NCBI GenBank assembly: GCA_021323655.1 | Contig: JAJPKO010000043.1 | Location: 22,337-86,336 of the forward strand | Reading direction: 5' to 3' | Length of the DNA: 64,000 bases | DNA from: Acidobacteriaceae bacterium | Lineage (GTDB): Bacteria > Acidobacteriota > Terriglobia > Terriglobales > Acidobacteriaceae | Part shown: in pieces, positions 43,738 through 60,877 of the stretch | Numbering within the stretch: the stretch's first letter is position 1 | How the letters are laid out: each line of letters starts with the position of its first letter | Position numbers and translations under genes: made by a program | Notes under the pieces: model-generated | Seen by the model: the letters and a program-made list of their open reading frames with translations, nothing else | Told to the model about the DNA's origin: nothing | Databases searched by the model: none

Positions 43738-43835
43738 GCGGAATCGGGGCCGGTGAAGCTCAGGGCCTTGATCCACATGTGACAGCGTTCACTTCGCTTG
43801 ACTGTCGTCGTATGCGATCATAAACTTGTTTCAGT

Positions 43836-43915
43836 GGTGACGGAGTTCACCCTTAACCGCTGTCCCCAATAGGCCGGACAGATGATGACTCCTGACAGGG
43901 AATACTGTCACGGAG
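43836..43915 (+). promoter_or_regulatory. Fluoride riboswitch (crcB motif) A plus expression-platform hairpin
   Basis: The sequence is GGTGACGGAGTTCACC CTTAACCG CTGTCC-CCAATAGGCC-GGACAG ATGATGACTCCTGAC. It has P1 GGUGA/UCACC, a loop GGAGU that can pseudoknot with the ACUCC tail, and a P3 hairpin. The tail CTCCTGACAG can instead pair with CTGTCACGGAG, which contains the GGAG SD. Confidence 0.8.
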
Positions 43916-43917
43916 CC

Positions 43918-45662
<1,745 letters not shown>

Positions 45663-45674
45663 CGAATTTGCACG

Positions 45675-45748
45675 CGGTGTTGGAGTCCACCGGAACAGCT
45701 CACACGGGCAAATGACTCCTCGAAGCGCGAAAACTTGGAGGAGTCATG
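45675..45748 (+). promoter_or_regulatory. Fluoride riboswitch (crcB motif) B with SD/start-codon-sequestering hairpin
   Basis: The sequence is CGGTG TTGGAGTC CACCG GAACA GCTC-ACAC-GGGC AAATGACTCCTC. The tail ATGACTCCTC (45712-45721) is perfectly complementary to GAGGAGTCAT (45738-45747), which covers the SD and the AT of the ATG at 45746. Confidence 0.8.
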
Positions 45749-47851
45749 CCCGAAATTGGCCCGGAGGCTACTCAAACTCGGAACCAGGGGGAACTAAACG
45801 AAGCTCAGCAGCGGCGTCTCTACGTCACTTGCTCGTACATCGATAAGCTGCTCGTAGAGATAGAACAGGTACTCCACGAGACGGCTTCGCCGTCCCCTTT
45901 CCCGCGTCACGTCATCGACATCACACCCGCGCAAGCGCGCGTGCTCGAAGATCACATTCGCCGTATTCGCGAACAGCTCTTGCGAACGCTTGACTGGCAA
46001 CAAATGAAGCCCGAATCACCGGAAATTCCGGCTACGCGGTCGGTCCTAACGCATCTCGAGTTCATCGACATTGCGGTTGAGGAACTCAAGCCAAGCTACA
46101 TGCGCGGTTCGGGAACAGTTCCCACAGACGCTGTCGATGAACTGACCGGTGTGGCCCACGAACTCCGATCAGTTGTGCAGAGCATGCAGCGCTATATCCG
46201 CCAGGAGTTTGGAACCAACCTTCAATCCCGCTTGGAATCGCTGGAGCAGACTGGCCATGATGTGGCTCTCCTGCGTGAACTCGAAGAGATCATTACTCGG
46301 CACGGTCTGGTTGAGTTCCGCTCTCGGATTGGTTCTCTCGCTCATCGCCTGGAGGACAACAATCTCGAAGTAGCGCTTTTTGGACGGGTCAGCTGCGGAA
46401 AATCCTCACTCCTGAATGCGCTTCTGGGAACGGCTGTCTTACCGGTGGGTGTCAATCCGATCACAGCCGTCCCAACGAAGTTGCGTTTTGGAAATGCCTT
46501 GCGAGCCGAAGTGACCTTTGGTACCGGCCGCGCGGAGGAGGTTTCCCTTGAGGAATTCGCGCAGCTGATCAGTGAGCAGGGAAACCCCGGAAATGCCCGG
46601 AGCGTTGTCCGCGCGATGGCGGAAGTACCATCGCCACGCCTGAAGAAAGGCATCCTTCTGGTCGATACGCCAGGTCTCGGCTCGCTCGCACGCCGTGGTG
46701 CTGCAGAGACTCTGGCCTATTTGCCGGCCTGCGATCTTGCCTTGGTGCTAATCGATGCCGGTGTGTCACTTAATGATGAAGACATCGGGACACTCCGCTT
46801 GCTTTACGAAGGCGGCATTCCGTCGATTGTGCTCCTCAGCAAGGCCGATCTTTTGCGAGAAGGCGATCTGCACCGGGTTACCGAGTACGTCCATGCGCAA
46901 TTGAAACGCGAACTCGGGATCAATACCCAAATCCATCCTGTCAGTTCCTTGCCGGAGTACTCTCTCCTGCTCGATCAGTTCTTTGAACGTGAGTTGTACC
47001 CGAGATTTGAGCAGGCCCGTAGTCTGCGCGAGGCTTCAGTCGCCAGAAAGATTGGGTCGCTTCGAGATTCCGTGAGTGCGGCTCTTGAGACCTCGCTGAA
47101 CCGCGAGAAGCGAGGGCGAGAGGTTATAAGTGCACTCGATGCTCATGACATAGAAGCACGGCTTCGCCACATCAACGGAGAAATCGGAGAACAGCGAACC
47201 CTGCTCAGTCAGGCGTTTTTTGAGCTTGGCGAACGCCCGGACGTGATCGTGGCAGAGCTTGCCGAGATGGTCACTCTGCGAATTGCTTCAGGCGAAAAGA
47301 GGCACTTCACTCCATTTGAGATATCCGAGTGGACCCACGATACAGTGCAGAGACGAATAGACGAGGCGATTGCAGGGGCCAGGAGCAGGCTGATGAGATC
47401 CATCGAGACATTAACAGAAATCGCCAGGGAAATGTCACGCTCCGACGTGCCTTCGAATGAAGACGCGGAACTACTTTTGCGTGAGGTGCCGCGGTTTGAG
47501 ATTGAAATCATCCCAGTAAAAATTGAGGCCGCCCGCTGGAAGTGGTTAGGAAAACGCATTGTGCGAGCGTTGGTGAAGAGCAACTTGCGGGAATGCCTTG
47601 GACCCTTGCTCAAGGACGAACTGCATCGCTACGAACGTGCGCTCGATCTGTGGACGGAGCAGGCGAGCAGAAAAATGGTAGCTCTTGTGAATTCATATGC
47701 GGACGCTTATCGCGCGCAGCTCAATCGTGTACGGGGGCTATCAGGAGGTGGCGAGACATCACCGGAGCTGGCTCAAGACCTTGCTCGGCTTCTGCGTTGG
47801 AATTCTAGTGAGCGCTCCGACAGCAAAACGCGCCTAGCGATGAACGAATAG
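45746..47851 (+). CDS. Bacterial dynamin-like GTPase
   Basis: G1 is GRVSCGKSSLLNALLG, G3 is LVDTPGLGS and G4 is LLSKADLL. Long helical regions flank the GTPase domain. Confidence 0.75.
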   Translation: MPEIGPEATQTRNQGELNEAQQRRLYVTCSYIDKLLVEIEQVLHETASPSPFPRHVIDITPAQARVLEDHIRRIREQLLRTLDWQQMKPESPEIPATRSVLTHLEFIDIAVEELKPSYMRGSGTVPTDAVDELTGVAHELRSVVQSMQRYIRQEFGTNLQSRLESLEQTGHDVALLRELEEIITRHGLVEFRSRIGSLAHRLEDNNLEVALFGRVSCGKSSLLNALLGTAVLPVGVNPITAVPTKLRFGNALRAEVTFGTGRAEEVSLEEFAQLISEQGNPGNARSVVRAMAEVPSPRLKKGILLVDTPGLGSLARRGAAETLAYLPACDLALVLIDAGVSLNDEDIGTLRLLYEGGIPSIVLLSKADLLREGDLHRVTEYVHAQLKRELGINTQIHPVSSLPEYSLLLDQFFERELYPRFEQARSLREASVARKIGSLRDSVSAALETSLNREKRGREVISALDAHDIEARLRHINGEIGEQRTLLSQAFFELGERPDVIVAELAEMVTLRIASGEKRHFTPFEISEWTHDTVQRRIDEAIAGARSRLMRSIETLTEIAREMSRSDVPSNEDAELLLREVPRFEIEIIPVKIEAARWKWLGKRIVRALVKSNLRECLGPLLKDELHRYERALDLWTEQASRKMVALVNSYADAYRAQLNRVRGLSGGGETSPELAQDLARLLRWNSSERSDSKTRLAMNE

Positions 47852-47863
47852 GGAGACAAGCAC

Positions 47864-48241
47864 TTGGAGAAATATTTCTATATCGCGATTGGAGGTTCGC
47901 TCGGGTCGATCGCCCGATACTGGGTCGGTACAACTGTGTCCGACCGCCTTGGTTCTAAGTTCCCTTATGGAACTTTCATCATCAACATTTCGGCCTGCAT
48001 CATTATCGGATTTGCGATCACGTGTTTGGGAAAGCACGTCGAATTGAATCCCGCATGGCGTTTCTTAATCCCGGTAGGATTCGTGGGCGCATACAGCACG
48101 TTTTCAACCTACGAATGGGAGACGCTATCGTCGATTCGGACAGGTGCATTCGCTCTCGCGGTTCTCTATTCGTTAACGAGCGTGGTTTTGGGAATTCTGG
48201 CCGCATGGGCCGGCGCCATTCTCGCGGAGGTGATCACGTGA
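47864..48241 (+). CDS. crcB: Fluoride ion channel CrcB/FluC
   Basis: IAIGGSLGSIARYWV, YGTFIINISACIIIGF and GFVGAYSTFSTYEWE are canonical CrcB motifs. The protein is 125 aa. Confidence 0.9.
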   Translation: MEKYFYIAIGGSLGSIARYWVGTTVSDRLGSKFPYGTFIINISACIIIGFAITCLGKHVELNPAWRFLIPVGFVGAYSTFSTYEWETLSSIRTGAFALAVLYSLTSVVLGILAAWAGAILAEVIT

Positions 48242-48804
48242 GAGCACATCGCCAAATCGTGCTTCATCAGTCCATCGAGGAACTCTTGCACGAGCCGGGA
48301 TGCCCGTTCTGCCGCTTTCTGAAGGATTTCCAGGCAGTTCATCTGCAGGGAGATTCCGCCAAGGAAATCCGTCGGCTCTGTAACTTTCACGCTTGGGGTG
48401 TGGCGGCGGTACAAGATGCCCAGGCGGCAGCGGACGTCTTCCTGACCCTGGTCAATGATGACGGATCAGTCCCGGGGCAACGGCCGGACTGCGACGTCTG
48501 CCGCAAGGTCATAGAGGAAGAGGATCGGAGAATTCGGGAGTTGGTCACCATGCTGGGAAAGCCTGATGTGGTGAGGTGGCTGCGAATGGAGGCCGTCTTC
48601 TGCATTCCGCACGCCGTCAAACTACGTCAAAAAGTGCCACTGACACTTACGGCGCGAATCGACGTGATCATTCGGAATTATCGTGAACAACTGAAGGACG
48701 AACTGATCCAATTGCGGAATGATCCGAGCCCTGATCGGTCAGGGTGGGGCGCACTTGGACGGGCTGCGGAGTTTTTAGTTGCGCAACGGGGACTCAGGAT
48801 ATAA
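48238..48804 (+). CDS. Cys-rich (CxxC / CxxH x2) protein of unknown function
   Basis: The GTG at 48238 overlaps the crcB stop (GTGA). Motifs are CPFC...CNFH...CDVC...CIPH. The track start at 48022 lies inside crcB. Confidence 0.5.
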   Translation: MRAHRQIVLHQSIEELLHEPGCPFCRFLKDFQAVHLQGDSAKEIRRLCNFHAWGVAAVQDAQAAADVFLTLVNDDGSVPGQRPDCDVCRKVIEEEDRRIRELVTMLGKPDVVRWLRMEAVFCIPHAVKLRQKVPLTLTARIDVIIRNYREQLKDELIQLRNDPSPDRSGWGALGRAAEFLVAQRGLRI

Positions 48805-48813
48805 GGAGGAAGA

Positions 48814-49581
48814 ATGCTGAACGTGGGGAAGGCTCTTAAAGTAGCCATCTACATCAGTGAAGGATCAACTCATCATGGGGTCGCGACATACTCCAGCATT
48901 CTCGATTTTCTATTCTATCGGGGCGTGTCGGGAGCAACGGTGACAAAGGGCATCGCAGGATTCGGCGCTGACCACCATATTCACACTTCGAGATCTGTTG
49001 AAATATCTGATCGTCTTCCATTGAAGATTGAGTTCATCGAGTCGCGTGAAAAGGTGAATGAGTTGCTTGGCAAGCTGGAAGAACTGGTCGGTACCGGAAT
49101 GATCGAGGTACAAGAGACAACGGTAGCCAAACCCGCCCAGAAAACCAAACCGAAAAGTGATACTGCTCCAGCTCACCTAAAGATCGAGGGCAAGGCCAAG
49201 ATGATGCGGATCTACATTGGCGAAGCAGACCGCTGGAGAGACAAACCGCTCCACACGGCCCTTATGGAAGCTATGCGCGCAAACGACATTGCCGGGGTTA
49301 CCGTTTATCGCGGCATCCTCGGGTATGGAGCGCATCGCAGGCTGCACAAGGACCGCGCACTTCATCTTTCCCACGATTGCTCAATCATGCTGTCAGCCAT
49401 TGATACAGAGGAGAAGCTCCAGGCATTTATGCCAATCGTGGAGCAGATGGTAGAGGAGGGCTTGATCGTTCTCTCTAACGTCGACATCATCAAGTACGCC
49501 TATCGTGCCGAAGGGTTAGATCAGCCAGAAGTAGTTCCTTCTTCTTCCCACACACCTGTGCAAGGAGATCAAACGCCATGA
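48814..49581 (+). CDS. Tandem DUF190 (PII-like, crcB-associated) protein
   Basis: There are two repeats of the pattern [LKVAIYISEG...GVSGATVTKGIAGFG] and [MRIYIGEADRW..KPLHTALMEAMRANDIAGVTVYRGILGYG]. Confidence 0.7.
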   Translation: MLNVGKALKVAIYISEGSTHHGVATYSSILDFLFYRGVSGATVTKGIAGFGADHHIHTSRSVEISDRLPLKIEFIESREKVNELLGKLEELVGTGMIEVQETTVAKPAQKTKPKSDTAPAHLKIEGKAKMMRIYIGEADRWRDKPLHTALMEAMRANDIAGVTVYRGILGYGAHRRLHKDRALHLSHDCSIMLSAIDTEEKLQAFMPIVEQMVEEGLIVLSNVDIIKYAYRAEGLDQPEVVPSSSHTPVQGDQTP

Positions 49582-49940
49582 AAGAGCAATTTGAGGCGAG
49601 GATGTTGCGTATTCATTTTGGTGAAGGAGATAAATGGCAGGGCAAACCACTGCATGAAGCGATTGTTGCCAAGTGTCAGGAACTTGGCTTGTCGGGCGCA
49701 ATCGTCTACCGGGGGATTGAAGGCTACGGAACGAGCACGCGAATTCATCATGCGAGTCATTGGAAGTTCTCAAAAGACGCTCCCATTATGGTGAGCATCA
49801 TTGATCAGGAGGAGCAGATTGACAAGCTGCTCCCTCACCTGGATGCCATGGTTGAAGAGGGACTGATCGCGATGTCCCGCGTGGAGGTGATCCGCTTCTC
49901 AAGAGGCCCGGTGAAAGAGGCGCCTGCTAAGTCACAGTGA
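49578..49940 (+). CDS. DUF190 (PII-like, crcB-associated) protein
   Basis: LRIHFGEGDKWQGKPLHEAIVAKCQELGLSGAIVYRGIEGYG. It overlaps the previous gene through ATGA. Confidence 0.7.
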   Translation: MKEQFEARMLRIHFGEGDKWQGKPLHEAIVAKCQELGLSGAIVYRGIEGYGTSTRIHHASHWKFSKDAPIMVSIIDQEEQIDKLLPHLDAMVEEGLIAMSRVEVIRFSRGPVKEAPAKSQ

Positions 49941-50175
49941 AGCAGTACAGCAACAGCGGAGCGGCCGAAGCGATTGAGCTGAGCTACGACTCGGCTGATC
50001 TATGTGATGTGTTCTTCGAGCTAACCTGCAGGGCATCAGCATAAGCGATATCACAAACTGGCAAAAGTGGAGTCGGCTGGATACTTGGGAGACGTGAGGA
50101 TCCAAATCAGCTCCTACACGAAGGTAGTCGTTACAAATTGGCGACCACAAGACTGTTGGAATCTACTGAAGGAGC

Positions 50176-50637
50176 ATGGACATAATGACAAAGGCCTTTT
50201 TTCAACGGGCTCTTGTAGGGGCCGATGGAACAGATGCCTCTCAACTGGCAATTGACGTAGCGATCGCACTTGCGAAGCGATTTGGTTCAGAGCTTCACTG
50301 CATCGGCGTCATCAGGCCCCCCAGTCCCGAAACGGAAGCAGAAGGGGTCGGATTTGAGCAGCTTGAACGAGATCACAAAGCGATTCGGGACCAAGTAGGT
50401 AGTTGTGCAGACAGAGCACGCGGCGAGGGAGTCCAAGCGATCACAGTCGAGCTTGACGGTGATCCGGAATCAGTCATTGAGAATTACGGTCTCGAGAACG
50501 AATTCGACATTATCATCGTTGGGCACCATCATCTGAACCGCTTCCGGCGCTTCCTCGAAGGATCTACCTCCGACAGCCTGGTCGAGCATTCTTCAGCTTC
50601 TGTTCTCGTTGTACGAGCCCCATCTCAAGAATCGTAA
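50176..50637 (+). CDS. Universal stress protein (UspA family)
   Basis: The C-terminal DIIIVGHHHLNRFRRFLEGSTSDSLVEHSSASVLVVR is the Usp ATP-binding-type motif G-x2-G-x9-GS. Confidence 0.8.
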   Translation: MDIMTKAFFQRALVGADGTDASQLAIDVAIALAKRFGSELHCIGVIRPPSPETEAEGVGFEQLERDHKAIRDQVGSCADRARGEGVQAITVELDGDPESVIENYGLENEFDIIIVGHHHLNRFRRFLEGSTSDSLVEHSSASVLVVRAPSQES

Positions 50638-51061
50638 ATGAACAGCGGTGGTGCGAGTTCTGATCCGAAGCCAGTGGTACAGCCAATGCGATGATCGGTC
50701 CCCTAGGAACTCGCACTCGGGATAATGCGCGATGCGCCCTTCAATCTTGCTTCTGGAATGGCTGGTGGACCGTGGCGTGTGTCGAGTTTCCGTTCGCAGC
50801 GATGGGATCGCTGAGGCGATTCATCCTTTTCTCGGGACGAGAAACCTTGGCAGGTCAGGCGGTCTTGATAGGTTGGAAAGCTACTGCGCTGGAACCCGAA
50901 GGGGAACTCTAAGGATATAGTTCGTTGCAGTAAGGGTAAATGCACCAAGGTGCTTGGATAGAAAACTGGAAAGCCACGCGCGATTATCCGGACTGTCCAT
51001 GCCTTTGCGATCACGTGCTCGAGAAGGAAGTGAACTCCCGGAGGGGCAAGTTGAATTATTA

Positions 51062-53203
51062 CTATGTTGCTCTGTAGACAAACAGTACCAGGAGAAGGAA
51101 TACAAGTACGTAAACGACGTAAGCGTTAAGTTTGCCGTGATGCATACCGGCAAGGAAATCGGCGATTCCTCGCGCTGCAGCCCCCACAGGTTGCAGGATG
51201 AGCCGGTCCACGACATGGATCTCCTCGCGTTGTCTGTGAATGGCCGTCCGAAAATGTACCGCAACCGTTTGACGCGTGTCCTCGACGATGTTTGGCCGAA
51301 AGATGGCCTGAAAGACTACACGGACGGGATTGGAGAAGCCGGTTGGCGTGTATGTCAAGAGCGGAAGAAGCCGCGGAATGCCCCCCGCCCAGACTGGGCG
51401 TTTCACCAGGGTACGTTGCCGCGTCAAGCGCCGGAATACGAACCATGCGGCGGCGAACAATATCACCAATGCGATGATGCTGTAGGAAGGCGACATGGCG
51501 AAGACTACCGGATTCGTTTCACCTCCACGGAGAAGCACGACCAATCCACGGCCTGGAACCAAGCCCCTGCCGGTCTGCGCACCTAGATTGTGGAAGTCTG
51601 CGAGGAATGCGGGAGGCAATTGTGCATTCTCGGGAGTCGCCGTAAAGAACGGCTGCACAAGTGCCGTGGTAACGCTGGCTCCGGCAAGAGATTCCACGCT
51701 CTGGTTGAGGATCGGCAGGACGTAGGTTGGAAGGATTCCCAGCAGTAGGCAGATAACGGCCAGAAAGGCTAAAGGAAACTTGCTCGTTGCCTGCGCTTTG
51801 ACGTGAAGCTCCCAACTGCCTCTGCGGATGCCAAGAAAGTTCATGGCGTAGGTCTTTACAAAACAGGTCACAGCCAGTGCCGCGGTCAGTGCCAGAGCGG
51901 CGCCGCAAAGTGCAAAGACGATTCTCACGGAGGTGGACGCGAGGACCGCGCTGCGCAACAGCGATTGCAGGGTCATCCACTCACTGACAAATCCATTGAA
52001 TGGGGGCACTGCGGAAATTGCCAGGCAGCCGATAAGAAAGATGGCAGATAATTCCGGCAGAAATCTGGCTAGGCCGCCGAGTTGGTCCATTTCGCGTGTA
52101 CCTGTTGCGGCTTCTACATGTCCTGCGCCCTCGAAAAGCAGTGTCTTGTAGATCGAATGATTCACCATGTGATAAAGCACCGCGGAAAGCGCGAGTGCTG
52201 CGGCAACTGGTTGACTGAAAGCCCGAAAGACCAGAAAGGCACCCAGGGCGGCGACAATAATGCCCGCATTCTCGATCGAGCTGTGAGCGAGCATCGTTTT
52301 CATGTCGCCGTCCGTTGTTGCATATAGAATCCCCACGAGCGCGGTGATGCTGCCGGTGATCAACGCCACCAGGCCCGTCCCGTAGCCCGCGTGCATGAGA
52401 TCGGCATTGAGGCGCAGGATTCCATAAAACCCGAGATTGAGTGTGATGCCAGCGAAGACAGGTATGAAGATAGGCGGGGCGGCGGTATAAGACCGCGGCA
52501 ACCAGAAATTGACCGGGACGAGGCCGGCCTTCACTCCGAAGCCAAAGAACCCCAGTAGGAACGGCAACCAAAGCGTGTCTGGCGAGAGCGTTGCACATGC
52601 CGAGCGCAAGGCCGTAAACGAGAAGTCCGTCGCGGAACGGGCAAGTAACAAAAATGCCACCGCAACCGCAAGAAATCCCGCTTCACTCATTGCCAGCATG
52701 ATGTAACCGGCAGACTTGTCCAGTTGTCCTTTTGGATCGTAGTTGATCAGCAAAAAGCAGAGACTGGACATGCATTCCCAGCTAATCAGGAAGAGGACAA
52801 TGTCGCCGGCCACGAGAATCAAGACCACCGCAGCCATGAGCGCAAAATAGAGAATCGCGTAATAGAGGTGGGGATGCGCTTCGTCCGTCTGATGTTTGAG
52901 GAAGCTCCCTGCGAATAACGAAACTGAAAAATAGACGACTCCGGAAACGAGAAGAAAAATGGACGAAACGGAATCGAGATGAATGGTGAAGCGCCCAAAT
53001 CCATCGAGCGTCCAAAGCGCAGCTTCGAAGGGCTGGCCCATCAGCAGCACAGATGCTGATGTCAGGACCATAAGGATCGACGACAGCGCACCGGCAATAG
53101 ACAGCACCGTTGGAACCTGCTTGTGGCCAAGCAACGCCGAAGCGAAAACTCCTGCTGCGCAAGCGACGAAGATCGCAACCAGGAATGAGCCGGTAATGGT
53201 CAT
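51062..53203 (-). CDS. HyfB/NuoL-like antiporter-type membrane subunit
   Basis: 713 aa polytopic protein. GFFGFGVKAGLVPVNFWLPRSYTAAP and HSSIENAGII are characteristic of NuoL/M/N-Mrp-type subunits. Confidence 0.8.
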   Translation of the reverse strand: MTITGSFLVAIFVACAAGVFASALLGHKQVPTVLSIAGALSSILMVLTSASVLLMGQPFEAALWTLDGFGRFTIHLDSVSSIFLLVSGVVYFSVSLFAGSFLKHQTDEAHPHLYYAILYFALMAAVVLILVAGDIVLFLISWECMSSLCFLLINYDPKGQLDKSAGYIMLAMSEAGFLAVAVAFLLLARSATDFSFTALRSACATLSPDTLWLPFLLGFFGFGVKAGLVPVNFWLPRSYTAAPPIFIPVFAGITLNLGFYGILRLNADLMHAGYGTGLVALITGSITALVGILYATTDGDMKTMLAHSSIENAGIIVAALGAFLVFRAFSQPVAAALALSAVLYHMVNHSIYKTLLFEGAGHVEAATGTREMDQLGGLARFLPELSAIFLIGCLAISAVPPFNGFVSEWMTLQSLLRSAVLASTSVRIVFALCGAALALTAALAVTCFVKTYAMNFLGIRRGSWELHVKAQATSKFPLAFLAVICLLLGILPTYVLPILNQSVESLAGASVTTALVQPFFTATPENAQLPPAFLADFHNLGAQTGRGLVPGRGLVVLLRGGETNPVVFAMSPSYSIIALVILFAAAWFVFRRLTRQRTLVKRPVWAGGIPRLLPLLTYTPTGFSNPVRVVFQAIFRPNIVEDTRQTVAVHFRTAIHRQREEIHVVDRLILQPVGAAARGIADFLAGMHHGKLNAYVVYVLVFLLLVLFVYRAT

Positions 53204-53206
53204 GAA

Positions 53207-53962
53207 TCAGGGTCTCCCTTCGGAGATTGGTCTCGGACTGTTCAACGATTTCCTTCCTGCAACCACCAGAAGCCCATGCAGTATTGCCAGAGGAGGCGGC
53301 GGGTTGCCTGGAACTTCAAAATCGACCGGCAAGACCGCGCTCACTCCACACGCGCACATGAAGCTTTTGCCGAAGACCCCGCCTGCTATAGCGCAGCCGC
53401 CGACGGCCATCACCTTTCTGGTGGTTGGCATGGCTTCCCAGGTCTTGAGCAGTGGTCCGCGCATGTTCTCGCTTACCGGCCCCACGACAAGCAGAAGGTC
53501 TGCGGTGCGAGGAGTGGCGGTCAAAAAGAACCCAAGGCGATGCATGTTGTAGAGAGGGTTGTTGAGCTGCTTCACCTCATGAAGGCAAGCGCCGCAGTCT
53601 CCGGCATCCACGACCATGATGTGCATCGACTTCGCAAAGGACGCTGGGAAGGGGAGCGCCTCCTTTCCATCTGCAGGCAAGCGGGTCCATTCATAGCCAG
53701 TTTCCCAGTTCATGGGGGATTGCAAGGAGTGCAGACAGAGTTGGCAATGCACGCATTTCCCGGGATTCACGTAGGTTGATTTCCCATGGGCGACGATCGC
53801 ATCGGTCGGACAAATTTCAGCGGCGAGTTGGGCCTCTTCAACTGTCGAAAAATCGGTGTTCACCGGACGTCCTGGTGAGACTCCGGGCGTGTTTTCCGCT
53901 CGCGCGGGGTAGCGAGTCGATTGAATGCCTTTGCGCAATCCGTGCCAGAACCAGAAGCTCAT
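53207..53962 (-). CDS. NuoB/HycG-like small subunit fused to a single-cluster ferredoxin-like N-terminus
   Basis: ICPTDAI plus CVHCQLC form the ferredoxin-like part. VVDAGDCGACLHE and AVGGCAIAGG are NuoB-type. The usual PGCPP is PGNPPPP here, so the fourth Cys is absent. Confidence 0.7.
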   Translation of the reverse strand: MSFWFWHGLRKGIQSTRYPARAENTPGVSPGRPVNTDFSTVEEAQLAAEICPTDAIVAHGKSTYVNPGKCVHCQLCLHSLQSPMNWETGYEWTRLPADGKEALPFPASFAKSMHIMVVDAGDCGACLHEVKQLNNPLYNMHRLGFFLTATPRTADLLLVVGPVSENMRGPLLKTWEAMPTTRKVMAVGGCAIAGGVFGKSFMCACGVSAVLPVDFEVPGNPPPPLAILHGLLVVAGRKSLNSPRPISEGRP

Positions 53963-53974
53963 CGTGAGCCACCT

Positions 53975-55600
53975 CTACCGATCACATTCGGTTGCGGACA
54001 GCCCGAAAGTTGCAAGAATGATCGGGAAATCCTGAAACGCGAAATTCTCTGCCGCAACGTGAAACCCGAGCCAATTGTTGAAGGACGGCGTAATTGCCCG
54101 ATATCGCTCGACAATCCCTCTTTCGTCCACTCGCAGCCAGTGAAGGGCGGCGCCTCTTGGGGCTTCTGTCCATCCAAGTGCAGCACCCGCGTGATTTACT
54201 TCATAGGCAACACGAACGGGACCCCCCTCCAACGTGTCGGCAACTTGATGGATCAGTCTCGCCGACTGTGTCGCTTCCGCAAAAAGGATGCGCAGTCTGG
54301 CATAGCCATCGCCCTCTGTCTCGCAGGGAACATCAAACGCAAGTCGTCCGTAGCCAGAATAGGAGCACGCCCGCCGCAAGTCGCAGTGCTGAGCGGAAGC
54401 ACGACCAATTGGGCCCACGAGATTCAGATCCCGGGCGCTCTCTCCAATGACGACCCCCACGTCCTCAAGACGGTCAAGGAAACTGCTGCTCAAGCGAAGC
54501 CGTCTCTCCAGGATGCGAAGATCGCTCTCCGCCTTATCGACTGTGGCGAGCAACGTTTTGCATTGCTCCAATTCGAAATCGCGATTCAGTCCGCCTGGAG
54601 TGTTCAGCCCGAACAGGTAGCGGTGATCCGTGAACACACAGGAGGCGCGGAGCAACTGCTCTTCGATGATCGACGCTTGTGCGGCAGCGACGGCCAGCGC
54701 GGTGGACTCACATATCGCCGCGATCGCACCTGCGTGGTGTCTCAATCGTTCCAGTTCAGCAAGCAGAACCCGAAGAGCCGCGGCTCGTGGCGGCGCCTCG
54801 ACCGCTGCAATTCTCTCGGCAGCGAGACAGAAGGCGAGCGAATGGGCAAATGCGGAGGTGGCAGCAAATCTTTCTGCCAGGAGGAGCGCATCCGGAATGC
54901 TGCGGCCCTCTGCGATCTTTTCGACGGCCCGGTAGTTGTAGAAAAGTCGGGGAGCCGCACGGATCACATCTTCACCGACCGTCTCGAGCAAAAAGTGCAA
55001 GGATTCCCCAATGCCGCCCTCGTATACGGGGCCAACCGGCATCGCGAACGAGCCGGGGTCTCCGACAACCAACAATGGCTGCCACTCCAGGTCCACTTTG
55101 CGCTCGAGTTGTGGACGTTCGGCCGAAAAGGTCTTGCGCATCGGATCGATGCCCTCGTGCCAGATCTGGTCGTGCAAGACAAAATCGCCGAGCCGCGGGT
55201 GGTTCTCGAAATGGATTCCAAACAGATCCTCTATTTCGCGTTCATGCCAATCTGCGGCGTGTACCTCGGTGACAATGCTGGGCAGGGTCTTTGTCTCAAG
55301 CGCCATCGAGAACTCTACATCGATCCATCCCGACCCAGGCAGGAGAAACGTGTAGTGGATCTGCCAATGGTTTGAATGCTCCTCGGCCGTGATTCCACCG
55401 AACAGGCAGCCGTGTTCCCAAAAAAGAAATTGAGCCAGGGTCGGCAGCGCACTTGGCTGACCAACTGAAAGCGTCAGAATAAAATTCGCGCCCGCTCTCA
55501 GTTGGGCAACCTGGTCTCCGAATCGCTCTACGATCATGCCTGTCAGATCGGCCAAGCCTGCTATATTCCCTCCGGCAATGGGTGAGGAATGCGTTGCCAT
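53975..55600 (-). CDS. NuoC-NuoD/HycE-like large subunit lacking the NiFe-binding cysteines
   Basis: The NuoC-like part contains WHEREIEDLFGI. The NuoD/HycE-like part has ERFAATSAFAH where hydrogenases have RxCGxCxxxH, and a C-terminus GLSATECDR instead of DPCxxCxxR. The ATG at 55600 is preceded by GGGAGGA. Confidence 0.75.
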   Translation of the reverse strand: MATHSSPIAGGNIAGLADLTGMIVERFGDQVAQLRAGANFILTLSVGQPSALPTLAQFLFWEHGCLFGGITAEEHSNHWQIHYTFLLPGSGWIDVEFSMALETKTLPSIVTEVHAADWHEREIEDLFGIHFENHPRLGDFVLHDQIWHEGIDPMRKTFSAERPQLERKVDLEWQPLLVVGDPGSFAMPVGPVYEGGIGESLHFLLETVGEDVIRAAPRLFYNYRAVEKIAEGRSIPDALLLAERFAATSAFAHSLAFCLAAERIAAVEAPPRAAALRVLLAELERLRHHAGAIAAICESTALAVAAAQASIIEEQLLRASCVFTDHRYLFGLNTPGGLNRDFELEQCKTLLATVDKAESDLRILERRLRLSSSFLDRLEDVGVVIGESARDLNLVGPIGRASAQHCDLRRACSYSGYGRLAFDVPCETEGDGYARLRILFAEATQSARLIHQVADTLEGGPVRVAYEVNHAGAALGWTEAPRGAALHWLRVDERGIVERYRAITPSFNNWLGFHVAAENFAFQDFPIILATFGLSATECDR

Positions 55601-55601
55601 C

Positions 55602-57047
55602 TCAATGTCCTCCCAATTGCTGCGCCGCAAGTGTCATGAGCGAATGAACAGGTCCAGGAATGTATACCCCGAGAAGTAGGACTGGCGCGACAGCAATAAG
55701 GACCGCCGTTCGGCAACTTCTGGGCGCCAATGCTGGAGTTGCAACATGCGAGGGTTCGCCGAACAACATGCTGTTCACCTGCAGGAAAATGGCTATGAAT
55801 GCGATGACAATTAGGACAGCAAGAATGATGACAGCGGCACTATGCCCTGATCTGAGGCCAGCAGACAAGATTGAAAACTCACTGAGAAAGATCGGAAATG
55901 GCGGCGCACCGGCGATCGCGAGCGAACAAAGCAGTAGCGCGCCGCCCGCAAACGGGGATATACGGAACAGCCCCCGCACCTGGCTGATATCGCGCGTCTC
56001 GAGTGCCAGCAAAACCATCCCTGCTGCGTAGAAACACAGGGACTTGGTAATCGAGTGATTCAACATCTGAGCAACAGCCCCATAGGCCGCAGCGTGCGTT
56101 GCGAAGCCGGTCGCGGTGAGAATGATTCCCATGTGTTCTACAGTGGAGTAGGCGAACATGCGCTTGTAGTCGCGCACCTGCAAGAGCAGGAATGCCGCGA
56201 TCCCCACAGAGAAGAGGCCCACGATCACCATCCACTCGCCGATACGCGCCTCGGGCGAGCGCAGAACGATGGAGAGCAGCCGCAAGACAGCGTACAGAGG
56301 AATCGTGGTCTTCATCCCCGAGAGCACAGCGCATATCGGAGTGGGCGCCTGACTATGAGCATCTGGGAGCCAGGTGTGCATGGGTGCAAGCCCGGACTTG
56401 GCACCGAACCCCACAAAGACCAGCAGAAATGACAATTTCAATAAATTGGGCGACATGGTTGAGGCCATCACATAGAGGCTTTGCCAGGTCTCGGCTGTCC
56501 CCCCGCCGCTGGTGCGAAATGCCCAATAGAGGGTCAAAAATCCAAAGAGCGAAATTGGCGCTCCCATGATGGTCAAGATTGCCATCTTCCAGGCGGCCTC
56601 GAGAGCGCCTGGGGTGCTTTCATACCCGACCAACAACGTCGCAAACAACGTGACCAACTCCACGGCCACCCAAACGAGATTGACCCGAGCCAACGAGGGA
56701 ACCGCCACCAGCGAAAAGACGAACAGATTGTAGTTCGAATAAAACCACCACAAGCGTTCCTTGGACTCGGTTTCGTGCTGCATATAGCCGCCAGAATAGA
56801 TAGCGGCAACGATGCAGACAAAAGTGACCATGACGAGGAGAAGAGCGCTCAGGCCATCCGCCTCAAACCATCCAGCAATCGCGATGAAGCGTCCGTTCAA
56901 GAGAACCTGCCACGCAGTAACACACGCGGCTGAAAGGGTAAGCGCAAGAATGACTATCGTTATAACCCAAGCCATGCGGCGCAACGGCGGGAGCCAACAC
57001 AAGAATGCGGCAAGGAGCGGCAGCGACACAGCAAACATTAGTGCCAT
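55602..57047 (-). CDS. HyfF/NuoN-like antiporter-type membrane subunit
   Basis: 481 aa polytopic protein. GFGAKSGLAPMHTWLPDAHSQAP and STVEHMGII are present. Confidence 0.8.
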   Translation of the reverse strand: MALMFAVSLPLLAAFLCWLPPLRRMAWVITIVILALTLSAACVTAWQVLLNGRFIAIAGWFEADGLSALLLVMVTFVCIVAAIYSGGYMQHETESKERLWWFYSNYNLFVFSLVAVPSLARVNLVWVAVELVTLFATLLVGYESTPGALEAAWKMAILTIMGAPISLFGFLTLYWAFRTSGGGTAETWQSLYVMASTMSPNLLKLSFLLVFVGFGAKSGLAPMHTWLPDAHSQAPTPICAVLSGMKTTIPLYAVLRLLSIVLRSPEARIGEWMVIVGLFSVGIAAFLLLQVRDYKRMFAYSTVEHMGIILTATGFATHAAAYGAVAQMLNHSITKSLCFYAAGMVLLALETRDISQVRGLFRISPFAGGALLLCSLAIAGAPPFPIFLSEFSILSAGLRSGHSAAVIILAVLIVIAFIAIFLQVNSMLFGEPSHVATPALAPRSCRTAVLIAVAPVLLLGVYIPGPVHSLMTLAAQQLGGH

Positions 57048-57730
57048 GTCCGGGGCTCCTCTCGCAGTTCACTCATGGCAGCGGCTTCGGTCGTCCCGAC
57101 CGTTCTGGTGATGTTCCTGGTTAATACACCAACAACCACAACAATCAGAATTACGTCGATCGCAATGGCGAGTTCGGCAATCAATGGAAGATCCGGAGCA
57201 ATCGCGATGCCGGCGAAAAAGGCGCCGTTCTCCATTGCGAGAATGCCAATGAGTTGGGGAATAGCTTCGCGGCGTGCGACCAGCGAATATGCACCGATCA
57301 ATAGTCCCGCCATGCCAATGGGCAAATTCGCCTGTACAACCGGGTCCTTTGCGGCCGTCACAAGAGGGCCGACCAGGAACTCTGCAGCAATTGCAAGCGA
57401 TAGTGCAATCAATAGTGACGTGGGAATGTTGATGAGTTGGTCGATCTCGCGGCGCTCATAGAGATCCGCCGGCAGCATCCGTCTGAGAACCCACGGGATC
57501 GTGATTACTTTTGATGCGATCATGATGCAGCCAAGAGCCAAGAGGTCGATTGAACCGCGATTGAACCCGATTAAGAAGGCAGACGCTGCCACGAAGAGCG
57601 ATTGAACAACGAGAAATCTTAAAACACCCTGTACCTGACGGGTCGTCACCATCGCAAAGGCTGCTAATAGGACAAGTCCCGCGGCCAAGGCGTTGAGTCC
57701 CTGAATAAGCTGTGTGTGAGCGCTTACCAC
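57038..57730 (-). CDS. HyfE-like membrane subunit
   Basis: 230 aa. IGILAMENGAFFAGIAIAPDLPLIAELAIAIDVIL matches the HyfE/NuoK-like pattern. Confidence 0.7.
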   Translation of the reverse strand: MVSAHTQLIQGLNALAAGLVLLAAFAMVTTRQVQGVLRFLVVQSLFVAASAFLIGFNRGSIDLLALGCIMIASKVITIPWVLRRMLPADLYERREIDQLINIPTSLLIALSLAIAAEFLVGPLVTAAKDPVVQANLPIGMAGLLIGAYSLVARREAIPQLIGILAMENGAFFAGIAIAPDLPLIAELAIAIDVILIVVVVGVLTRNITRTVGTTEAAAMSELREEPRTWH

Positions 57731-57743
57731 CGGCGACTCCTTT

Positions 57744-58703
57744 CTAAGCAGCCGAAGCTGAAAAGATGCTCGCGATCATCGCTGCCACAGAGATGATGAA
57801 TGCGGCTCCAAGAAACTCGCTAATGCGAAAGAGGCGCAACTTCGCGAGAGAGGACTCGATCATGACGAGGACGATCGTGAACAAAAGAATCTTGAGCAGT
57901 ATCAAAGGAATCGCGAGCAGCACGTGGACAGGCTGCACATCCCCGGCCAGGCCCCAAGGCGCCAGAAGGACGTTGAGGAAGATACAAGTGAGCACCAGAA
58001 ATTTCATTTGGCCGCCCCACTTCATCAAGGCGGCGCCGCGACCCGAGTATTCAAGCCCTTTCGACTCATCGATCATGGCGAGTTCAAAATGCCCCGTGGG
58101 GTTGTCGACGGGGACCTTTCCACCTTCGGCAAGGATCAGCATCAGGAAGGCAATCAGCAACAGAATGTGCGCAGGAGAAAAGAATGCGGCTGGGCTCGCG
58201 ACCCATTTCTGCTGAACAATGTACGGAATCGTGGATTGGGCTACGAACGAGACGGTGAAAAAGACAATCATGAACACCGGCTCGGCGAGGAACCCCACCA
58301 TTCGCGTTCTGCTCGCTCCCATAGGACCGTATGGGTTTCCGGTATCGACGGCCGCAAGGGCGGCAAAGAAACCGCCAAGTCCGAGAAAGAAGCCGCCGGC
58401 GAGCATATCGCCCATAAACGCAAAAGCTAGGGGATAATCCGTGAGGACCGGTATCAGGCTCGCGACGAACAGCGGCACGATGAAAACCAGGTAAGGCGTC
58501 ACGCAAAAGATCCACGTGGTTTCCGAGGAGACAACCTCGTCTTTATGAAAAAGCTTCCAGAGATCCCGATAGGGCTGAATGATGCTGGGACCGCGCCTGC
58601 TCTGAACCATTTCTTTGAACCGGCTGAGCATGCCAGAGTACAAGGGCGCGAAGCCAAGTACGAAGAGAAGCTGAACGAGGTTATACAGAATTGTCCGTGC
58701 CAT
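57744..58703 (-). CDS. HycD/HyfC/NuoH-like membrane subunit
   Basis: APLYSGMLSRFKEMVQSRRGPSIIQPYRDLWKLFHKDEV is the typical HycD/NuoH N-terminal motif. It is the first gene of the operon. Confidence 0.8.
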   Translation of the reverse strand: MARTILYNLVQLLFVLGFAPLYSGMLSRFKEMVQSRRGPSIIQPYRDLWKLFHKDEVVSSETTWIFCVTPYLVFIVPLFVASLIPVLTDYPLAFAFMGDMLAGGFFLGLGGFFAALAAVDTGNPYGPMGASRTRMVGFLAEPVFMIVFFTVSFVAQSTIPYIVQQKWVASPAAFFSPAHILLLIAFLMLILAEGGKVPVDNPTGHFELAMIDESKGLEYSGRGAALMKWGGQMKFLVLTCIFLNVLLAPWGLAGDVQPVHVLLAIPLILLKILLFTIVLVMIESSLAKLRLFRISEFLGAAFIISVAAMIASIFSASAA

Positions 58704-58903
58704 CGGAACTCCCCTGAGTTTTGCAGTTGGACTGACCGCTGAGGTTCGAGAAATCCGCTCGTTTCTTGCATTCAGCAGCGGCGTACTGCGATTAGAAGCG
58801 CCAATGGACCAAGACGCCCCCGAGTCGGCGGAGGTGTCTCGAAGAGAAAATCTGATTTGGAAGGTTTGAATCTTGGGGTGGACTTTTGGACTCTTCTCTT
58901 CAC

Positions 58904-58970
58904 GGCGCGACTCCTATGAGGTAGGAATCATCAGCCGTGAAGGCGGTTATCGGTGGAGTTCCATCACCGT
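58904..58970 (-). promoter_or_regulatory. Fluoride riboswitch (crcB motif) C, minus strand, about 215 nt upstream of the Hyf-like operon
   Basis: The minus strand reads ACGGTGATGGAACTCCACC GATAAC CGCCTTCACGGC TGATGATTCCTACC. The tail TCCTA can pair with the downstream TAGGA of a TAGGAG SD that precedes the GTG at 58903. Confidence 0.75.
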
Positions 58971-59140
58971 CCCGACATGTGCTGCCAACATATTGAACCG
59001 CAAGAACCTACTTGTCAAGGCGACCACCGCCGCCACGGCATATCGCATCCAGCGTCAGCGCGATCGGAGCAGTGCGCCCCGGACGTGATTCGGCGCGTCA
59101 TTGACAGTCCACCACACCGGTCACGATACTGACTGGGAGC

Positions 59141-59212
59141 GGGTGTTGGAGTCCACTCTGATACGCCCCTCCCACGAGGGGAAGATGACTCCTGCGAGTA
59201 GGACAGCAGGAG
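59141..59212 (+). promoter_or_regulatory. Fluoride riboswitch (crcB motif) D with SD-sequestering hairpin, upstream of the MutS-related pair
   Basis: The sequence is GGGTG TTGGAGTC CACTC TGATACG CCCCTC-CCAC-GAGGGG AAGATGACTCCTGC. The tail ACTCCTGC is perfectly complementary to GCAGGAGT (59205-59212), which contains the AGGAG SD. Confidence 0.8.
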
Positions 59213-59218
59213 TTGACT

Positions 59219-60877
59219 GTGCCAACGAACCCCGCCAATCGCCCAGCCCCGGAGCCCCGGCTACAAAGCAACCCTCCAGCAATCACTCCAGGCAACGAGA
59301 CAAACCCTGATGCTTCAGCCTTTCACAGCATCCTGACCGAGTGTCAGGATGTCGACGGGCAGTCTGAGATCCAGGAAGCTCCTGGATTCTTTAGCGATCT
59401 CAATCTCGATCAGATCGTCGGCACGATCACGGCCGGACGAGAACAGTACGATTTGAAGCCACTCTTCTATACGCCCCTAAAGACCGTTGAGGCTGTTCAC
59501 TATCGGCAGGACGTCTTCCGCGATCTTTCAGGGAATTTCCGCCTATTGGAACTGGTTCGTTCATTTGCGGAAAGAATGCGGGAGATGCGAACTCTTCTCG
59601 CGATTTCCGAAAAGCGATACTACAAACGTCAAAAGCAAGCCGCCTTTCTCGATGCCGTTGAAACATACTGCAATACTGTCACGGTGCTTAAGGAAGGCCT
59701 GCTCTCCACAGGTCCTGCGTCGCGAGGATTCCAGGCGCTTCGCGGTTTTCTTGTCCGCTACACCGGCTCAGAAGAGTTCACCAGCCTGAAGAAGGAAACG
59801 GAGCGGGTCAGAGCAGAGCTCGCGAAGGTCCGATATTCGCTTCACATCCATCAGGGGCGTGTCACGGTCAACCGCACTGACACGGAAGGCGACTACAGCG
59901 AGGAAGTTCTCAGAACCTTCGAAAAATTCCGGCAGACGGATCCGCGAAGCCATCGCTTCAAGGTTCCCCTATCGATTGAGATGAATCACATTGAGGCACG
60001 AATCCTCGATCTGGTCTCCGCATTGCATTCGGAAGCATTTGCCCGCCTAGACGCGTATTGCGACCGATACCGCAACTACTGTCATCAGCTGATTGCCAGA
60101 TTCGATCGCGAAGTACAGTTCTACATCGCCTATCTCGAACAACTGGAACAGTTGAAGAAGGCAGCGCTTCCGTTCTGTTTCCCAGGCGTGAGCAGCCATT
60201 CGAAGGAAGTGCAGGCGCTCGACACCTACGATGTTGCGCTTGCGAATCAGCTGATTCATGCCCGGAAAGATGTGGTTAAAAACAGCTTTTGCTTGAACGA
60301 ACCCGAGCGCACTTTAGTCGTCTCTGGGCCCAATCAAGGCGGGAAGACCACGTTTGCGCGCACCTTTGGACAGCTACATTATCTGGCGGCTCTGGGCTGT
60401 CCGGTGGCGGGCATCTCAACAAAATTATTCCTATTTGATCGACTCTTTACGCACTTCGAGAAGGAAGAGGACATTCAAAATCTACGCGGGAAGCTTGAAG
60501 ACGAGCTGATCCGCATCAACGAGATTCTTGAGAATGCGACAGCGAACAGCATCCTCATAACGAACGAGAGCTTTTTGTCGACGACGATGAACGACGCTCT
60601 CTTTCTCAGCCGCGAGGTGATGAAGCGGATCGCCGCTCTCGATATGCTTTGCGTGACTGTTACGTTTCTCGATGAATTGGCTTCATTCAACGAAACGACT
60701 GTAAGCATGGTCAGCACGGTGAATCCCACGGATCCGCAGCAGCGGACATTCAAAGTGATCCGGAGACCGGCTGATGGCCTTGCTTACGCAGCAGCGATCG
60801 CCGAGAAATATCACCTGACCTACGAGGCAGTGAAGACGCGGGTAGGTGCGAGGGAAAGCGAGGTGAACGAGTCATGA
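59219..60877 (+). CDS. MutS-related ATPase (domain V type, no mismatch-binding domain recognised) 1
   Basis: Walker A is VVSGPNQGGKTTFARTFGQL. The Walker B-like segment is SILITNESFLSTT. The GTG at 59219 lies 6 nt after AGGAG; the track start TTG at 59213 has no spacing. Confidence 0.7.
   Translation: MPTNPANRPAPEPRLQSNPPAITPGNETNPDASAFHSILTECQDVDGQSEIQEAPGFFSDLNLDQIVGTITAGREQYDLKPLFYTPLKTVEAVHYRQDVFRDLSGNFRLLELVRSFAERMREMRTLLAISEKRYYKRQKQAAFLDAVETYCNTVTVLKEGLLSTGPASRGFQALRGFLVRYTGSEEFTSLKKETERVRAELAKVRYSLHIHQGRVTVNRTDTEGDYSEEVLRTFEKFRQTDPRSHRFKVPLSIEMNHIEARILDLVSALHSEAFARLDAYCDRYRNYCHQLIARFDREVQFYIAYLEQLEQLKKAALPFCFPGVSSHSKEVQALDTYDVALANQLIHARKDVVKNSFCLNEPERTLVVSGPNQGGKTTFARTFGQLHYLAALGCPVAGISTKLFLFDRLFTHFEKEEDIQNLRGKLEDELIRINEILENATANSILITNESFLSTTMNDALFLSREVMKRIAALDMLCVTVTFLDELASFNETTVSMVSTVNPTDPQQRTFKVIRRPADGLAYAAAIAEKYHLTYEAVKTRVGARESEVNES

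Follow-up and report, generated by a model that had tools for sequence, protein, structure and literature searches.

A probable variant fluoride riboswitch inside a predicted acidobacterial operon and its proposed control of a dynamin-like GTPase gene

The DNA considered here is a 64,000-nt stretch of an Alloacidobacterium genome (GenBank assembly GCA_021323655.1, contig JAJPKO010000043.1, positions 22,337 to 86,336), hereafter the window, and the element in question is riboswitch B, a putative fluoride riboswitch directly upstream of a gene for a dynamin-like GTPase. The aptamer of riboswitch B (45675..45721, + strand, like all features of the block described below) follows the enolase gene eno (44358..45662; Pfam Enolase_N and Enolase_C), with the eno stop codon at 45660-45662 and the first helix of the aptamer, P1, beginning at 45675, 13 nt downstream. 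The 701-aa GTPase (45746..47851) carries the motifs G1 GRVSCGKS (residues 213-220), G3 DTPG (307-310) and G4 SKAD (365-368), matches Pfam Dynamin_N (PF00350) with 82.5 bits against a cut-off of 27, and is deposited as 'dynamin family protein' HLH36194.1 from an Alloacidobacterium sp. metagenome-assembled genome. Its TAG stop (47849-51) is separated by 12 nt from the TTG start, at 47864, of crcB, the gene of the Fluc fluoride channel (47864..48241; CRCB, PF02537, 94.8 bits against a cut-off of 32.9; TIGR00494, 102 against 80.45, both by profile search), and a Shine-Dalgarno (SD)-like GGGAG overlaps the GTPase stop. A preliminary description of this stretch had placed riboswitch B 13 nt after the eno stop, with its tail complementary to the SD and the AT of the GTPase start codon, and had put crcB 12 nt behind a 701-aa dynamin-like GTPase with G1, G3 and G4 motifs; coordinates, sequence and Pfam matches bear out both statements.

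Several features lie upstream of riboswitch B. A promoter-like site (43798..43826; TTGACT-17 nt-TAAACT) abuts riboswitch A and is the likely start of the operon, as a pattern match only, from a consensus scan in which the number of promoter-like matches does not exceed shuffled expectation. Riboswitch A (43827..43901) is a canonical fluoride aptamer of the A6/U38 type, scoring 39.1 bits against the Rfam fluoride model RF01734 (gathering score 34), and its tail, as read in the sequence, faces its own SD and ATG (GGAGCCATG) at 43910-43920. Behind it lies a 171-aa open reading frame (43918..44433), without a Pfam match, which tblastn identifies as a truncated remnant of a Na+/H+ exchanger: it is 42% identical to residues 3-91 of NhaP of the distant locus L085, the nhaP genes of closer relatives are matched too, the similarity is confined to roughly the first 110 residues, and the frame overlaps the eno start by 76 nt. 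Relatives hold at this position a riboswitch, an intact nhaP, usp and eno, and the intact nhaP-usp pair therefore points to a deletion in the lineage of the window. Enolase is an enzyme inhibited by fluoride. Its gene is a known member of the fluoride riboswitch regulon (PMC11139923).

Downstream of crcB, the block continues with orfX (48238..48804; 188 aa, CxxC motifs, DUF6062 at 16.4 bits, below the cut-off), whose GTG start at 48238 overlaps the crcB stop (GTGA). It is followed by a gene for a tandem DUF190 protein, PII-like (48814..49581; 202 bits over two stretches), and by one for a single DUF190 protein (49578..49940; 119 bits), the start of which overlaps the preceding stop by 4 nt. 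From the GTPase gene through the second DUF190 gene, successive genes are accordingly 12 nt apart, overlapping by 4 nt, 9 nt apart and again overlapping by 4 nt. The last gene in the block encodes a universal stress protein (usp, 50176..50637; Pfam Usp, 93 bits), and a terminator-like hairpin with a T-run (50805..50822), again only a pattern match of the consensus scan, is the likely end of the operon. Because riboswitch A, the promoter-like site, the truncated nhaP and eno all precede it, riboswitch B is taken to be intercistronic, the second fluoride aptamer of one predicted transcript, and 45675-50637 is probably the second regulatory tier of one long fluoride-response operon. The GTPase gene does not head the operon in the window, as had been proposed, since riboswitch A, the nhaP remnant and eno come before it; it does so in about a dozen eno-less relatives, where it is the first gene (for example in L079, with aptamers at 5721-5798 and 5926-5977).

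The anatomy of riboswitch B is that of a fluoride aptamer. From 45675 it consists of the hairpin CGGUG-UUGGAGUC-CACCG, AACA, the hairpin GCUC-ACAC-GGGC, and then AAAUGACUCCUC. P1 pairs 45675-79 with 45688-92, P2 pairs 45698-701 with 45706-09, and the pseudoknot joins 45682-87 to 45714-19. The tertiary pairs are U45680•A45710 and A45712•U45720, equivalent to A6•U38 and A40•U48, which in the T. petrophila structure form a reversed Watson-Crick and a reversed Hoogsteen pair, respectively (PMC11586693). Riboswitch B shares with RF01734 (T. petrophila, 4ENC) a P1 of 4-5 bp, a short P2, a 6-bp pseudoknot between P1 loop and 3' tail, A40•U48 and the conserved U7-G8 and U41-G42, together with a gene neighbourhood of crcB, eno, nhaP, usp, DUF190, mutS-like and formate-hydrogenlyase-like genes. 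It differs in carrying U6•A38 and A39, in lying between cistrons after eno rather than in a 5' untranslated region, and in being the second aptamer on its transcript. At the gathering score, Rfam calls two fluoride aptamers in the window, at 43827-43901 (+) and 58915-58977 (-); riboswitch B is not called by RF01734 at that score, nor is its counterpart in 11 related loci, and its identity as a fluoride aptamer therefore rests on comparative evidence.

For this comparison, 80 Acidobacteriaceae genome loci encoding relatives of the GTPase were retrieved. The B element stands directly 5' of the orthologous GTPase gene in 62 of 79 of them, in the form GGUGUUGGAGUYCACC...GCUC...GGGCARAUGACUCCUC...CUUGGAGGAGUCAUGCCC. 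In 59 distinct copies, 99.4% of the cells of P1, P2, the pseudoknot and the two tertiary pairs are paired, where sliding the partner leaves 40-50%. Between genomes whose GTPases are 55-87% identical, the P2 loop and the stretch from tail to SD change freely, whereas the aptamer positions are invariant. Every B copy has U in place of the consensus A6, and 58 of the 59 have A in place of U38, with G in the remaining copy (U•G); the copy in the window additionally carries G39A, a change also present in a 56-bit canonical match (L061).

The relation between this variant and the canonical aptamer was explored with a covariance model of our own, R1, built from 50 B copies and 8 canonical copies and searched over the window and 91 loci; riboswitch B itself scores 69.2 bits. 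Alignment of the 147 aptamers with E <= 1e-5 gave 138 distinct rows, canonical and variant, in which the 6-38 pair is AU in 68, UA in 68, GC in one, UG in one and unpaired in none, while at 40-48 all rows but one (137) have A•U. Over the structure as a whole, 95.8% of cells are paired and ten pairs differ on both sides; none of 500 shuffles attains any of these measures, in which cells count sequences rather than evolutionary events and the alignment is fitted to R1. On this comparison, riboswitch B appears as a structurally intact aptamer of a variant subtype, with a compensatory swap of A6•U38 to U6•A38. The swapped tertiary pair, together with G39A in the window's copy, accounts for the sub-threshold RF01734 scores of 16-32 bits. 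The preliminary description of a fluoride riboswitch needs correcting in that the element is a sub-threshold variant and not a standard RF01734 match.

Searching metagenomes for the U6/A38 pattern gave at least 119 stretches, and 80 of these were examined. The gene downstream belonged to the GTPase family in 54, with 2 further truncated contigs carrying the same leader, and was crcB in 10 and a MutS_V gene in 6, the remainder being AAA_16, DUF6062 and others; because the pattern was derived from GTPase leaders, these proportions are biased. In the 10 crcB contigs the aptamer lies 136-204 nt 5' of the channel gene. One U6/A38 copy, directly 5' of a Bryobacteraceae dynamin-like protein (DLP) gene, reaches 36.1 bits and exceeds the Rfam gathering score. 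Wherever it occurred, the U6/A38 type lies amid genes of the fluoride regulon. Since it appears to control crcB directly, another ligand is hard to reconcile with these contexts, and riboswitch B most likely senses fluoride.

Two further arrangements were recorded. A third state of the tertiary pair, G6/C38 (GCGGUGGAG...GGCCAAUGACUCC), occurs in sub-threshold fluoride-aptamer variants that precede the second DLP paralogue in L083 (11877-11927, -), a DUF190 operon in L085 (4034-4088, -) and an AAA_16 gene in L082 (6503-6552, -). At loci without eno, a canonical aptamer and one of the U6/A38 type form a mixed-subtype tandem, 130-340 nt apart in one leader 5' of the GTPase gene (L004, L005, L016, L043, L051, L055, L060, L072, L074, L076 and L079, at 5500-6000). 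Such pairs recall the tandem same-ligand riboswitches for glycine and thiamine pyrophosphate in having two aptamers on one transcript. The arrangement in the window differs from those systems in that a complete eno gene separates the aptamers, that each would gate a different block of cistrons, and that they belong to different sequence subtypes.

The expression platform of riboswitch B is compact. The segment ATGACTCCTC (45712-45721) is the exact reverse complement of GAGGAGTCAT (45738-45747), which spans the SD (GGAGG) and the AT of the GTPase ATG at 45746. The resulting OFF-state helix (45706..45751, supported by the minimum-free-energy fold and by conservation) pairs 45712-21 with 45738-47 and GGGC at 45706-09, the 3' strand of P2, with GCCC at 45748-51, and it competes with both P2 and the pseudoknot. 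The 89-nt leader 45672-45760 folds into P1 and a long helix at -38.6 kcal/mol (z -4.16), with 0 of 200 shuffles as good. In 59 distinct orthologous leaders, the 10-bp core of the OFF helix is paired in 96.4% of cells, against 32-67% in slid controls. The consensus scan found no terminator-like or promoter-like site and no U-run in the 83-nt spacer between eno and the GTPase gene; on that ground, a transcription-attenuation model for riboswitch B was dropped. The platform has the look of a classic translational ON-switch. As an observation apart, the leaders L023:5900-6000 and L025:5745-5845 have lost the aptamer and kept a covarying SD-sequestering hairpin (GAUGGCUCCUC...GGAGGAGCCAUC), which could be constitutively closed or otherwise regulated.

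In the proposed mechanism, the 3' tail of the aptamer and the 3' strand of P2 would pair, when fluoride is lacking, with the SD, the start codon AUG and the second codon of the GTPase gene, and initiation would be blocked. Fluoride bound as a Mg-F cluster would hold the tail in the pseudoknot and leave the ribosome binding site free, and the genes from crcB through the second DUF190 gene would then be expressed behind the GTPase. Translational coupling along this series is possible because of the short gaps and overlaps from the GTPase to the second DUF190 gene, and, if left untranslated, the 2.1-kb GTPase gene would probably cause polarity as well. The analysis shows the anatomy and its conservation, the covariation of the tertiary pair, the dynamin-like fold and the linkage of this GTPase family to fluoride riboswitches in several phyla; the ligand, the translational mechanism, the coupling and the polarity are inferred. 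Regulation of the GTPase by a fluoride switch is well supported, and the best explanation as a whole, a second-tier fluoride operon in which a functional variant aptamer gates the GTPase and the genes that follow, is given a probability of about 0.7.

Several observations weigh against this explanation and bear on two rival accounts. Riboswitch B reaches only 16.4 bits against RF01734 (E 0.021, permissive scan), below the gathering score of 34, and its orthologous copies reach 20.6-31.6 bits, all sub-threshold. The 59 B copies taken by themselves contain no double-sided covariation, shuffles being equally good, because the set is too conserved; it documents conservation, not structure. Few evolutionary events may lie behind the U•A swap. 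With its 10+4 bp, the OFF helix greatly exceeds the 6-bp pseudoknot in stability and starts only 17 nt past the aptamer, and kinetic trapping or strong stabilisation by the ligand must therefore be assumed. The family-wide sub-threshold score is also what would be expected if riboswitch B were a decayed, non-functional copy, with the GTPase and crcB expressed by read-through from riboswitch A and the complementarity of tail and SD a by-product of the CUCC-containing tail. By its nature, the 3' tail of every fluoride aptamer resembles an anti-SD sequence, and some orthologous loci have riboswitch A and lack B (L006, L015, L039, L056 and others). Decay is nevertheless very improbable, given that spacer and P2 loop drift around unchanging aptamer positions, that none of the 138 aptamers has A at both positions 6 and 38 or U at both, and that the U6/A38 type appears to control crcB directly elsewhere.

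The other account, which we regard as unlikely, accepts a functional aptamer and assigns the U6•A38 variant a different ligand or a different fluoride threshold, the latter yielding a two-threshold operon with eno induced first and GTPase-crcB later, or the reverse. The base change is systematic and adjoins the ligand-binding phosphates of nt 6-8, and A and B occur together in one transcript or leader in many genomes, which would be redundant if they were identical. Fluoride, however, is held by Mg2+ bound to the backbone phosphates of A6, U7, G8, U41 and G42 (PMC11586693; bioRxiv 10.1101/2022.05.19.492696), not by the bases; the swap is compensatory, and the downstream genes are the classic fluoride set, including crcB. 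A different ligand is in this respect unlikely, and a shifted dissociation constant is possible.

The GTPase, predicted to be gated by the variant aptamer, has a G domain at 207-400, preceded by a helical region (19-203) and followed by helical bundles (403-700). Residues G213, K219, S220, T240, D307-G310, K366 and D368 do not vary among 64 homologues, the most distant of them at 30% identity, and the profile of these homologues matches, among PDB entries, C. jejuni DLP1/DLP2 (5OWV; 5e-26 and 3e-25), IniA (3e-18), mitofusin-1 and the Nostoc bacterial dynamin-like protein (BDLP). The AlphaFold (AF2) model has a predicted local distance difference test score of 87.7 and a predicted template-modelling (TM) score of 0.70. 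Its best Foldseek matches are IniA, BDLP, Cj-DLP1/2, SynDLP and mitofusins, with probability 1.0 over 570-760 aligned columns and TM-scores of only 0.24-0.34, as expected for hinged multi-domain proteins. Modelling and profile searches agree on a dynamin-like, BDLP/mitofusin-like fold. Named DLP families were considered and rejected, with DynA at 55 bits against a cut-off of 1600, CrfC at 22.6 against 1146 and the LeoA family at 17.9 against 325 (NCBIfam); because no named DLP model is reached, the GTPase is placed in a separate DLP family. The anti-phage 'Dynamins' (LeoA/LeoBC) were likewise set aside, as PADLOC matches are weak, at the level of the P-loop, and the context is not a defence island.

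The association of this GTPase with fluoride genes is not particular to the window. As a test of refutation, the preliminary description had named beforehand a lack of enrichment of dynamin-like genes beside fluoride riboswitches or crcB in relatives; the outcome was strongly the opposite, with a fluoride aptamer upstream in 74 of 76 Acidobacteriaceae loci and fluoride-regulon genes beside 12 of 12 distant homologues. In the former, which are the orthologues with at least 400 nt of upstream sequence, the aptamer lies no more than 2.7 kb upstream on the same strand. Among the Acidobacteriaceae, crcB is directly 3' of the GTPase gene in 63 of 75 loci, DUF190 follows at a distance of no more than 2.5 kb in 65 of 68, orfX is conserved in 51 of 72, eno is upstream in 50 of 73, and a second DLP paralogue (~35% identity) lies downstream in 48 of 61. 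This second DLP gene typically begins ~150-400 nt past the last DUF190 gene (L003, L008, L026 and 45 other loci), and some loci have a third. The Acidobacteriaceae pattern alone could reflect inherited synteny.

The distant homologues extend the pattern. Searches of a representative library gave 556 clusters with E < 1e-30, and 12 distant homologues (~30-41% identity) were examined, from protein clusters whose source names include Bryobacteraceae, Pirellulales, Burkholderiales, Verrucomicrobia/Limisphaerales and Dongiaceae, some of these names belonging to Planctomycetota, Verrucomicrobiota and Proteobacteria. Fluoride-regulon genes surround the GTPase in all 12. All 11 loci having DNA contain fluoride aptamers, and in 9 of them one or more match RF01734 with no less than the gathering score; the four Rfam matches of L082 stay below it, at 25-33 bits, and in L083 the leader of the main DLP scores 36.1 bits and that of the second 24.5 (RF01734). 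An aptamer stands 5' of the DLP-encoding operon in at least 6 of these loci, and 8 hold further Dynamin_N genes, several with their own aptamer, as before the second-paralogue genes in L089 (4609-4671) and L087 (6188-6250). Gene order varies: eno-DLP-crcB-DUF190 beside ppa and CLC in L081, where the crcB start overlaps the GTPase stop; nhaP-usp-DLP in L085 and L086; DUF6062-DLP in L084; MutS_V-MutS_V-(AAA_16)-DLP in L088-L090; and AAA_16-DLP-Metallophos-MFS-DLP2 in L091, where MFS is a major facilitator superfamily transporter. Since the linkage crosses phyla with varying gene order, function is favoured over hitch-hiking.

Two side observations concern these distant loci. In L088-L091, whose DLP clusters are named Pirellulales, Burkholderiales, Limisphaerales and Dongiaceae, a riboswitch-headed set recurs that comprises two MutS_V genes, a small AAA_16 ATPase, Metallophos(+dUTPase_2) and two or three DLPs, and that looks, by gene content, like a conserved fluoride-induced module. 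A single gene in L088 (1-1247, +) fuses Dynamin_N with DUF6062, a DUF6062 gene directly precedes the DLP in L084, and DUF6062 has its own riboswitch in L089, which suggests DUF6062 as a functional partner of fluoride-linked DLPs.

What the GTPase does under fluoride is a separate matter from its regulation. Tentatively, and at less than even odds, it is proposed to be a peripheral membrane protein of the BDLP/IniA kind that works, as a rule, with a paralogous partner in maintaining or remodelling the cytoplasmic membrane under fluoride and acid stress; this reading ranks highest because of the fold relatives, the paired paralogues, a candidate membrane loop and the transporter neighbours (crcB, nhaP, MFS). 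The loop in question, 578-612, is conserved, non-helical, hydrophobic/aromatic and basic, and is possibly a membrane-binding tip. A membrane role is made less secure by the lack of any transmembrane segment in the GTPase (maximum 19-residue hydropathy 1.6, inside the G domain), by the failure to find a second DLP paralogue within the 64-kb window, where usp occupies its place, and by the frequent partners in other phyla, which are cytosolic nucleoside triphosphatases (NTPases) and phosphoesterases (MutS_V, AAA_16, Metallophos). In a second and rather unlikely view, the GTPase is one of a set of phosphoryl-transfer enzymes (MutS_V, AAA_16, Metallophos, ppa, eno) over-produced or replaced as metal fluorides (MgF3-, AlF4-) trap NTPases and phosphatases. 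GDP-AlF4- traps dynamin-family G domains, and riboswitch-headed operons with two MutS_V genes, AAA_16 and Metallophos do occur on Pirellulales, Burkholderiales, Limisphaerales and Dongiaceae contigs. DLPs, however, are specialised paralogues and not housekeeping enzymes in need of replacement, the GTPase sequence gives no indication of fluoride tolerance, and a stoichiometric sink would be unable to buffer millimolar fluoride.

The repeated adjacency to MutS_V pairs and Metallophos, and the MutS_V gene behind a variant aptamer in the window, could also be taken to mean that the GTPase acts on DNA or the replisome in the manner of CrfC, within a fluoride-induced genome-maintenance module alongside MutS-like proteins and Mre11/SbcD-like Metallophos proteins; DNA damage was a speculation in the original motif paper (PMC2864571). 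This is quite improbable, as the CrfC match is negligible (22.6 vs 1146 bits), the best relatives in sequence and fold are membrane DLPs, and the immediate partners in Acidobacteriaceae are crcB and DUF190, not MutS. The near-contiguous junctions of GTPase and crcB genes (12 nt in the window, an overlap in L081) and the position of crcB directly downstream in 63 of 75 Acidobacteriaceae loci speak for a further suggestion, that the GTPase assists the insertion, dual-topology assembly, organisation or clustering of the Fluc (CrcB) channel. Its chance is very slim: no crcB is called beside the GTPase gene in 10 of the 12 distant loci, none is called anywhere in the locus in 9, and 12 of the 75 Acidobacteriaceae loci have no crcB directly downstream, a distribution that disfavours the suggestion.

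Like C. jejuni DLP1/DLP2 (5OWV) and Nostoc BDLP (2J68), the GTPase has a mitofusin/BDLP-type G domain flanked by helical bundles, and in most relatives a second paralogous DLP lies in the same cluster, as in other bacterial DLP pairs. It differs from them in several ways: identity over the fold does not exceed 14-18%, a helical region of 200 aa stands at the N-terminus, neither a transmembrane nor a paddle hairpin is predicted, and the window has no partner DLP; to our knowledge, fluoride is not an inducer of the Cj-DLP or BDLP systems. IniA is an operon-encoded, stress-induced bacterial DLP expressed after envelope stress. In the comparison with IniA/IniC (6J72), IniA is the best Foldseek match and the third-best PDB sequence match, and the window GTPase is likewise predicted to be made only on a stress signal. 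The ini genes are induced transcriptionally by cell-wall inhibitors, whereas the ion would here be read directly by an RNA on the same mRNA.

Bacterial DLPs are widespread, and physiological triggers are known for few of them. The preliminary description was not aware of any described link between bacterial dynamins and fluoride stress, and none was found in the searched literature: riboswitch, dynamin and fluoride were not found together, though an earlier tabulation in the supplement of Baker et al. 2012 is possible, and 'bacterial dynamin' with fluoride, or crcB with dynamin, gave no relevant paper. The 2010 motif paper (PMC2864571) and a 2024 review list mutS, transporters, formate hydrogenlyase, Na+/H+ antiporters, pyrophosphatase, HAD, enolase and chorismate mutase, and no GTPase. 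Riboswitch class and protein superfamily have each been described before; novelty appears to lie in the link between them, in the intercistronic layout with two aptamers and in a U6•A38 subtype that Rfam does not catch. Because the compensatory swap of one tertiary pair is enough to drop a common subtype beneath the Rfam threshold, counts of fluoride riboswitches in Acidobacteriota are too low, above all for those between cistrons.

The broader proposal, put forward with reserve and again as something short of an even chance, is that this distinct DLP family forms an unrecognised core arm of the fluoride response in at least 4 phyla, usually with 2-3 paralogues, often with DUF6062, MutS_V, AAA_16 and Metallophos, expressed only when the riboswitch opens and gated in acidobacteria preferentially by the U6•A38 subtype, which may be tuned to a different fluoride threshold and would then give a two-step operon. 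If it is correct, fluoride toxicity would have a membrane or NTPase-poisoning component that dynamins counter. The fluoride regulon, so far composed of exporters, pH homeostasis and fluoride-inhibited enzymes, would gain a large GTPase with DUF6062, MutS_V, AAA_16 and Metallophos companions. A whole DLP family would also have a single-ion ON signal in its own mRNA, offering a clean experimental handle in NaF.

Beyond the block itself, the window holds further fluoride-related elements. A canonical aptamer at 58915-58977 (-), with 53.8 bits against RF01734, heads a six-gene operon resembling formate hydrogenlyase/hydrogenase-4 (51062-58977, -), whose genes encode NADHdh, Oxidored_q2, Proton_antipo_M, Complex1_49kDa+30kDa, Oxidored_q6 and a second Proton_antipo_M protein. 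Divergent from it, a fourth aptamer, of the U6/A38 type (59140-59197, +; R1 34.1 bits, below the Rfam gathering score), lies just 5' of the gene for a 554-aa MutS_V-domain protein (59213-60877). By its aptamer content, the stretch from 43.8 to 60.9 kb reads as a fluoride island with four aptamers.

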